The notes below the pieces were generated by a model that worked only from the letters and a program-made list of their open reading frames with translations, ran no database searches and had not been told where the DNA came from. A program made the position numbers and the translations under genes. From the NCBI RefSeq assembly GCF_017348835.2, contig NZ_CP071375.1: a stretch of DNA of 64,000 nt; one strand, given 5' to 3'. The stretch comes from Escherichia coli. Its GTDB lineage: Bacteria > Pseudomonadota > Gammaproteobacteria > Enterobacterales > Enterobacteriaceae. Positions 22,307 to 24,799 of the stretch are shown piece after piece (within the stretch, counting starts at the first letter, position 1; each line of letters begins with the position of its first letter).

Positions 22307-22527
22307 CTTTTATTCCCGATTGCGTAGTTTGGCAAAAGTAAGTGATGTAAATGTGATCTAATTAACAAACTATTTACATTTAAAGATAATAAAACATTAA
22401 ATATCAGTAAGTTAATAAAATATCATCAATTTTGATAAAATCAGGAATTGAGGGACAGCGCAGTCCCGGTAACGTGACGATTAACTGTTTCTATATTAAT
22501 GATTTTGAATTTTTCAGGGGAAAGATA

Positions 22528-23092: not shown

Positions 23093-24757
23093 ATGTTAAA
23101 ACGTATCAAGATCGTGACCAGCTTACTGCTGGTTTTGGCCGTTTTTGGCCTTTTACAACTGACATCAGGCGGTCTGTTCTTTAATGCCTTAAAGAATGAC
23201 AAAGAAAATTTCACTGTTTTACAAACCATTCGTCAGCAGCAATCCACGCTGAATGGCAGCTGGGTCGCGTTGTTGCAGACGCGTAACACCCTCAACCGCG
23301 CGGGTATCCGCTACATGATGGATCAGAATAATATTGGTAGCGGTTCAACCGTTGCTGAGCTGATGCAGAGTGCCAGTATTTCGCTGAAACAGGCGGAAAA
23401 AAACTGGGCAGATTACGAAGCGTTGCCGCGTGACCCGCGTCAGAGCACCGCCGCAGCGGCAGAGATCAAACGTAATTACGATATTTATCACAATGCGCTG
23501 GCGGAGCTGATCCAACTGTTAGGTGCAGGCAAAATCAACGAGTTCTTTGATCAGCCGACCCAGGGATATCAGGACGGTTTCGAGAAGCAGTATGTGGCTT
23601 ACATAGAGCAAAACGATCGGCTCTATGATATCGCCGTCAGCGATAACAATGCCTCCTACAGCCAGGCGATGTGGATTCTGTTGGGCGTGATGATCGTCGT
23701 ACTGGCGGTCATCTTCGCCGTCTGGTTCGGTATTAAAGCCTCGTTGGTAGCGCCAATGAATCGCCTGATTGACAGCATTCGTCATATTGCAGGCGGCGAT
23801 CTGGTGAAACCGATTGAGGTGGATGGCTCTAATGAGATGGGGCAACTGGCAGAGAGTTTGCGCCATATGCAGGGAGAGCTGATGCGTACCGTCGGTGATG
23901 TGCGCAACGGGGCCAATGCCATCTATAGCGGTGCCAGCGAAATCGCCACCGGCAATAACGATCTCTCTTCGCGCACCGAGCAACAGGCCGCTTCGCTGGA
24001 AGAGACGGCAGCCAGCATGGAGCAACTGACCGCAACGGTGAAACAGAACGCCGAGAATGCGCGCCAGGCCAGCCACCTGGCGTTAAGTGCTTCTGAAACG
24101 GCGCAACGCGGCGGCAAAGTGGTAGATAACGTGGTGCAGACTATGCGTGATATCTCCACCAGTTCGCAGAAAATCGCCGATATTATCAGCGTAATTGACG
24201 GCATTGCCTTCCAGACCAATATTCTGGCTTTGAACGCGGCGGTTGAAGCAGCGCGTGCGGGTGAGCAAGGACGTGGTTTTGCGGTGGTTGCGGGAGAAGT
24301 GCGTAATCTGGCCCAGCGTAGCGCCCAGGCGGCTCGTGAAATTAAAAGCCTGATTGAAGACTCGGTGGGGAAAGTGGATGTTGGCTCTACGCTGGTCGAA
24401 AGCGCCGGGGAAACAATGGCGGAGATTGTCAGTGCCGTGACCCGCGTGACGGACATTATGGGCGAAATAGCTTCTGCTTCTGATGAGCAGAGCCGTGGTA
24501 TCGATCAGGTTGGCTTAGCGGTTGCTGAGATGGACCGGGTAACTCAACAGAACGCCGCGCTGGTGGAAGAATCTGCCGCTGCCGCCGCCGCGCTGGAAGA
24601 GCAGGCCAGTCGCCTGACCGAAGCTGTGGCAGTGTTCCGGATTCAGCAACAGCAGCAACAGCAGCGTGAAACATCGGCTGTGGTAAAAACCGTGACGCCA
24701 GCTACGCCGCGTAAAATGGCAGTGGCAGATAGCGGGGAGAACTGGGAAACGTTTTAA
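23093..24757 (+). CDS. tsr: methyl-accepting chemotaxis protein I (serine chemoreceptor), ends NWETF
   Basis: 554 aa; full-length match to Tsr; C-terminal glutamine run is 7 residues. Confidence 0.92.
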
Positions 24758-24769
24758 TCGCCATAAAAA

Positions 24770-24799
24770 TGCCCGATAAGCAAAATGTTATCGGGCATA
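24770..24799. terminator. hairpin between convergent tsr and lgoT (atgcccgataa-loop-ttatcgggcat)
   Basis: 11-bp inverted repeat. Confidence 0.5.

Follow-up and report, generated by a model that had tools for sequence, protein, structure and literature searches.

Seven glutamines at the start of the Tsr tether are the majority allele of an in-frame 9-bp repeat in Escherichia coli

The serine chemoreceptor Tsr carries seven consecutive glutamines (Q7) near its C-terminus in the stretch of Escherichia coli DNA analysed here, a 64-kb segment referred to below as the window, and four (Q4) in K-12. The initial annotation of the window called the run expanded and described it as encoded by a trinucleotide repeat able to change length by slippage. 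Is Q7 a lengthened form peculiar to this strain or the ordinary state of the species, and by what unit does the tract grow and shrink?

The coordinates of the gene and its relevant segments are collected in Table 1. The open reading frame, whose stop codon directly follows ...ENWETF, was recognized by the NCBIfam equivalog model for Tsr (NF011615/PRK15041) with 1221.9 bits against a cut-off of 947, in an alignment covering positions 1–554 of the 554-position profile, while the Tar model scored 751.9 on the same frame, under its cut-off of 900. Of 5,426 complete E. coli genomes, 5,385 had a match to this frame that was annotated as tsr. In strain PE164, with which the window is colinear, the identical tsr is flanked by hpaR and lgoT, and tsr adjoins lgoT in convergent orientation in K-12 DH1, O157:H7, HS, and PE164. 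The NWETF pentapeptide was found on the non-conserved tail after residue 517, as described for Tsr (PMC4692393, PMC7390727). Six substitutions separate the window protein from K-12 Tsr (E92Q, M171I, H178Y, V197L, A535T, and E545G in K-12 numbering), four of them in residues 1–521 and two in the tail. The adaptation (methylation) sites of K-12 Tsr, which we take to be Q297, E304, Q311, E493, and E502, are all the same in the window.

Table 1. Coordinates of tsr, its repeat tract and its C-terminal tether in the window.
Feature	Coordinates	Strand	Basis and remarks
tsr coding sequence (554 aa + stop), serine chemoreceptor / MCP-I	23093..24757	+	NCBIfam PRK15041 equivalog; annotated tsr of PE164 100% identical
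C-terminal flexible tether, I517 to E549, 33 residues (K-12: 30)	24641..24739	+	boundary from PMC10561060 and PMC4692393; coordinates from ORF start, residues 515–525 checked
Q7 tract, cag + 2 x (caacagcag), or 2.4 copies of the 9-bp unit cagcaacag	24644..24664	+	sequence; TRF; codon alignment with Q4, Q10, and Q13
9-bp repeat unit caacagcag	24647..24655	+	one such unit absent from K-12-type Q4; which of the two copies was lost is indistinguishable
Second 9-bp repeat unit caacagcag	24656..24664	+	sequence; TRF; codon alignment
NWETF, aac tgg gaa acg ttt, then taa	24740..24754	+	sequence; role in PMC7390727 and PMC4692393

The surroundings of the gene vary among strains. Downstream, a TRAP transporter permease gene takes the place of lgoT in some strains, whereas lgoT is the neighbour in HS, O157:H7, K-12, and the window; upstream lies the hpa cluster in the window, which K-12 lacks on that side, its locus being without hpaR. 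Because the neighbouring genes differ among strains, tsr is situated at a junction of variable gene content. Between the stop codon of tsr and the end of the convergent lgoT (24806), a perfect 11-bp inverted repeat (atgcccgataa ... ttatcgggcat) occupies positions 24769–24798 and looks, by eye, like a candidate bidirectional terminator shared by the two genes.

The observations from which the initial annotation started proved accurate. The sequence and the reading frame contain seven glutamines at the position given for them, the tract takes up residues 518–524, directly after I517 and thus in the tail linker that precedes NWETF, and K-12 Tsr, given there as a protein of 551 residues with four glutamines, is exactly this in DH1 (FRIQQQQRE). 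Its seven codons, cag caa cag cag caa cag cag, form the only run of at least four glutamines in the six frames of the window. With the codon that follows, the tract is cag caa cag cag caa cag cag cgt in the window, as against cag caa cag cag cgt in K-12, which is shorter by exactly one caacagcag. Tandem Repeats Finder (TRF) described positions 24644..24665 as 2.4 copies of period 9 with 100% matches, compared with 78% as period 3; the copies, at least two, therefore follow one another head to tail without a mismatch. In an alignment of 14 full-length tsr alleles, every indel column fell within columns 1552–1569, inside the tract. Alleles with one, two, three, and four repeat units were read directly; strains thus differ by whole units, and the tract belongs with the in-frame coding tandem repeats of variable copy number.

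The frequency of each length was estimated with queries composed of a 29-nt flank, the tract, and a second 29-nt flank, for which a 9-bp gap shifts a match to another BLAST identity band; the resulting counts are those of identity bands among the 5,385 complete genomes with this part of tsr, and not tract calls for individual genomes. The Q7 query (79 nt) matched 4,055 of these genomes at 95% identity or above and 1,324 at 80–90%, and all of the matches in the upper band in an evenly spaced sample spanned 79 nt. With the Q4 query, 1,214 genomes fell at or above 95% and 4,059 at 80–90%. The Q10 query placed 72 genomes in the upper band, including E. coli HS, LF82, NRG 857C, and O104:H21 94-3024. 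For the 97-nt Q13 query, identity bands are unusable as counts because a 27-nt gap breaks up the alignments with Q4 alleles into fragments of high identity; ranked full-length matches were used instead, and there were three (RM14723, A13, and Z1323HEC0355). The approximate tally, which leaves aside 3 genomes in the 90–95% band of the Q7 query, was about 4,055 genomes for Q7 (75%), about 1,211 for Q4 (22.5%), 72 for Q10 (1.3%), and 3 for Q13 (0.06%), to be read with the bias of RefSeq complete genomes, in which K-12 laboratory derivatives and some pathogenic clones are over-represented and O157:H7 and ST131 genomes are numerous. In an evenly spaced sample of whole-gene matches, 27 of 39 spanned 1665 bp and the other 12 spanned 1656 bp. 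Representative Q10 and Q13 alleles, read directly, encode 557 and 560 aa, respectively. Q7 is thus the majority allele of E. coli and the Q4 of K-12 a minority form; judged from its sequence, the window tsr is a normal, intact gene with the commonest allele, and its role in serine taxis is predicted.

Roughly 40 further genomes (~0.8%) have interrupted seven-codon forms (QQEQQRQ). About 37 of them carry what we call the O6:H16-type allele, found in O6:H16 ETEC and in other strains, in which the segment reads FRI-QQEQQRQ-RE (cag caa gag cag caa cgc cag); the one that was fetched encodes 554 aa. N50, UPEC132, and GN02350 also have QQEQQRQ, in a tsr that is ~12.5% divergent (~207 differences, and 553 aa in N50). 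The N50 gene, at 279–1940 of locus L008 (NZ_CM165889.1), is divergent from all other E. coli alleles, and tsr of this type was probably imported from another Escherichia lineage. The idea that all of the ~40 genomes outside the Q4, Q7, and Q10 tallies were of the N50 type was rejected: three are, and the rest have the O6:H16-type QQEQQRQ.

Single-codon steps were sought with Q8 and Q6 queries, and neither returned anything above the ordinary Q7 genomes, which matched at 96.2–96.3% over 79-nt spans; a Q6 or Q8 allele with three or more extra SNPs in the flanks would tie with the Q7 matches and could escape detection. Since no such allele ranked above Q7, changes of a single codon are very rare if they occur at all, and the unit of change is 9 bp. 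Of the annotation's account of how the run changes length, the part that places the cause in repetitive DNA therefore stands, and the trinucleotide unit does not: the period is a perfect 9, and only Q4, Q7, Q10, and Q13 were found.

These counts bear directly on the reading of Q7 as a run that expanded in this strain, through CAG/CAA trinucleotide slippage, from a K-12-like Q4. When only K-12 is compared, the window does have three additional glutamines, and gains of units do happen at this site, as Q10 and Q13 attest. The majority status of Q7, its period of nine nucleotides, and the seven codons of the outgroups and of the interrupted E. coli allele all speak against an expansion, which we regard as very improbable and as largely refuted. 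Nor is the allele peculiar to the strain: tsr of PE164 is the same gene to the last nucleotide and the 79-nt stretch around the tract occurs exactly in 1,455 independent complete genomes, so nothing about it is strain-specific. A strain-specific polyglutamine expansion was rejected as a class for the tract as well, given its frequency of ~75% and the equal length of the outgroup segment. The finding named beforehand as speaking against the annotation, namely that K-12 and other strains share the seven-glutamine tract, was obtained for most other strains and not for K-12.

The ancestral length was assessed with a scan of species-representative genomes by a degenerate DNA pattern for T(E/Q)AVAVFRI, which is independent of the glutamine run, and 102 loci were obtained. 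None of them came from E. albertii, E. fergusonii, S. enterica subsp. enterica, or the representative of E. coli itself, and the evidence on polarity comes from other Escherichia lineages, two Salmonella subspecies, and Citrobacter. Counted as the residues between FRI and the following R/H-E/D, the segment has seven codons in Salmonella enterica subsp. arizonae and diarizonae and in Citrobacter koseri (QQEQQRA in all three), in Escherichia sp. E1V33 (QQTQQRQ), and in a genome titled E. coli SCPM-O-B-8794 (QQAQQRQ). The O6:H16 allele is identical to the Q7 of the window at five of its seven codons. From T(E/Q)AVAVFRI to the terminal F, the tail measures 46 aa in 52 of 86 Enterobacteriaceae Tsr-like proteins, which is the modal value in a range of 43 to 51 aa and that of Q7; the Q4 tail of K-12 measures 43. 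The length of the NCBIfam Tsr model, 554 positions, is also that of the Q7 allele. The segment of Escherichia whittamii has nine codons, QQTQQQQQQ, consisting of cag cag acg and the same two caacagcag units as in E. coli Q7, and this form fits poorly with a simple scheme; the rest of its tail is one residue off that of the window (E for G just before NWETF).

On grounds of parsimony, the seven-codon length is most simply taken as ancestral and the Q4 of K-12 as the product of a 9-bp deletion. With Q7 in ~75% of the genomes and seven codons in the outgroups, it is K-12 that would be the contracted, minority form, and the word "expanded" does not suit the window allele. The earlier interpretation as a whole is thus partly supported.

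Length states did not track the tsr backbone among the 14 full-length alleles. AH21G053 (Q4) is 2 SNPs away from strain 2779 (Q7) and 28 from K-12 (Q4), HS (Q10) is 12 SNPs away from 2014C-3097 (Q4), and within this sample at least three backbones carry Q10 (those of HS, LF82/ST80, and 94-3024). Such scattering points to repeated slippage, unequal exchange, or short recombination tracts.

We consider it very likely that the window carries the usual, commonest form of a 9-bp repeat polymorphism that keeps the frame at the start of the tether, that the ancestral segment had seven codons, and that K-12 lost one unit; the variation is probably near-neutral. The ancestral segment would have consisted of seven glutamine-rich codons (QQEQQRQ/A). 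Q codons would then have replaced those for E and R in the main E. coli lineage, creating the perfect direct repeat cag(caacagcag)x2. Slippage in replication, or unequal exchange, between the two 9-bp copies could drop or add whole units, and the loss or gain of whole units would yield Q4 (as in K-12), Q10, and Q13. The reading frame, the receptor body, NWETF, and the methylation sites are preserved in all of these alleles; what varies is the length of the unstructured tether that holds CheR and CheB near the methylation sites, at 30, 33, 36, or 39 residues.

How much such a change might matter can be gauged from published work on the tether. Conservation in Tsr is described as ending at residue 517, after which K-12 has a non-conserved C-terminus of 34 residues, NWETF among them (PMC4692393), and the unstructured linker tethers the pentapeptide, which is a high-affinity docking site for CheR and phospho-CheB (PMC7390727). 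Counted from I517, the chain has 30 residues in K-12 Tsr and 34 in Tar, and for Tar chains of 22, 29, 34, and 46 residues the fitted peak of the CheR position was linear in length, with 0.128 +/- 0.048 nm per residue and an intercept of ~6 nm (PMC10561060). The natural Tsr tethers have 30 (Q4), 33 (Q7, the window), 36 (Q10), and 39 (Q13) residues. Extrapolation from Tar suggests that one step of three residues would move the enzyme by ~0.4 nm, or ~4% of a reach of ~10 nm. The functional effect is thus probably small and the polymorphism nearly neutral, as far as the Tar constructs can be carried over to Tsr.

A different reading of the same length series is that tether length is adaptive, with the 9-bp repeat serving as a putative evolvable in-frame tuning knob that would set the reach of CheR and CheB, and with it serine adaptation, by lineage or niche. 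The recurrence of the same length states on unrelated tsr backbones would suit this idea, although recombination can explain scattered alleles as well, and so would the presence of Q10 in several gut-associated strains (HS, LF82, NRG 857C, and mouse isolates). Against the idea, high mutability is not expected of a 9-bp repeat with two copies, and the tail varies in length across Enterobacteriaceae. Tether length does shift the fitted CheR position distribution measurably in Tar (PMC10561060), and linker truncations are reported to have affected receptor function significantly (Li & Hazelbauer 2006, as cited in later work); the published Tar constructs, however, span 22 to 46 residues, as against the ~0.4 nm (~4%) shift of the CheR peak predicted for a step of three. 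On balance, we regard selected tuning as unlikely. In its more specific form, Q4, Q7, Q10, and Q13 would act as a dial of tether length, in which helix-proximal steps, perhaps with polyglutamine extending the helix, would alter CheR/CheB reach and the speed or precision of serine adaptation, and in which selection would have favoured different settings in different lineages; this too seems unlikely to us. Were it true, quantitative models of Tsr adaptation based on K-12 would describe an atypical, short-tether receptor.

A sequencing or assembly artefact in a low-complexity stretch was also weighed. Repeats are open to miscalls, and a homopolymer difference (G10 versus G9) from PE164 elsewhere in the window indicates some uncertainty about indels between the two records. 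However, thousands of complete genomes that were sequenced independently carry this tract too, and its 21 nt of mixed cag and caa codons are easily spanned by reads, which makes an artefact extremely improbable.

Over its 64 kb, the window is colinear with PE164 with zero mismatches and two indel differences, at 7046–7055 and at 22450. The first is the homopolymer just mentioned, which lies within 5416..7957 (+) in otherwise identical sequence: the window has G10 and PE164 G9, and with the additional G the gene for penicillin G acylase (pac, an intact 846 aa in PE164) is broken into the reading frames 5416..7098 and 6992..7957. An 86-nt G10 query matched at 99% or above in 213 of the 1,074 E. 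coli genomes with this stretch, and the 100% matches among those listed span all 86 nt; the G10 of pac reflects either a homopolymer error that recurs in sequencing or a genuine G tract, widespread and prone to frameshifts. At 22450, the window is without one C compared with PE164, in the hpaG–hpaR intergenic region just upstream of hpaR. Between yjjV and yjjW, a 101-bp unit is present in 4.1 tandem copies (45726–46139), three of which exceed the gathering score of Rfam RF02564 for naRNA4, a nucleoid-associated RNA derived from REP elements; REP/BIME arrays of this type are known. PE164 has an annotated frameshift in yjiR, a gene of the PLP-dependent aminotransferase family (L117, 217–1631, corresponding to window ~3309–4723), and since the window is identical to PE164 at yjiR, the same pseudogene is presumably present here.

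For the window itself, the result matters little and the finding is an ordinary one: all alleles of the series are already present in annotated public genomes, and the window allele is a known common form. Our literature search found no description of a polymorphism of the Tsr tract in the papers that it covered. The main consequence of the result concerns the reference: K-12 Tsr is atypical of the species, with a tether three residues shorter than in about three-quarters of sequenced E. coli, and it is the allele on which nearly all quantitative studies of Tsr have been done, which calls for caution in chemotaxis work. It has been argued that the 30-residue tether of Tsr, shorter than the 34 residues of Tar, suits the places at which its methylation sites lie (PMC10561060); since 33 residues are typical of the Tsr tether in E. 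coli, this argument holds for the K-12 allele only. The natural series of 30, 33, 36, and 39 residues also offers ready-made variants for models of Tsr tether length.

Compared with known systems, the nearest relatives of the window allele are other alleles of the same gene. PE164 tsr (Q7, 554 aa) shows no relevant difference, and tsr of O157:H7 ATCC 43889, also Q7 and 554 aa, is 11 nucleotides off. K-12 Tsr (551 aa, b4355), the allele of the RP437-based chemotaxis work, is the same gene with lgoT downstream in both and with identical NWETF and methylation sites; it differs in having one caacagcag fewer, hence Q4 for Q7 and a tether of 30 instead of 33 residues, a minority state at ~22.5%. The QQEQQRQ of O6:H16 and the QQEQQRA of Salmonella and Citrobacter occupy the same site after FRI517 with seven codons, as in the window, but their E and R codons break the repeat, and no perfect 9-bp direct repeat is present. 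The engineered Tar variants with chains of 22, 29, 34, and 46 residues (PMC10561060) and the linker truncations of Li & Hazelbauer (2006) likewise alter the length of the unstructured segment between helix and NWETF; these are engineered changes in Tar, with steps that are larger and NWETF-proximal, whereas the natural Tsr series proceeds by three residues at the helix-proximal end. A phase-variable contingency locus was considered as a class for the tract and rejected, the unit being 9 bp and the fetched Q4, Q7, Q10, and Q13 alleles being annotated as intact tsr of 551, 554, 557, and 560 aa, respectively. The tract is most akin to bacterial in-frame VNTRs, with which it shares a perfect tandem repeat and variation by whole units; its copy number is very low (1–4), its 9-bp unit keeps the frame, and, unlike phase-variable contingency loci, it does not switch the gene on and off.
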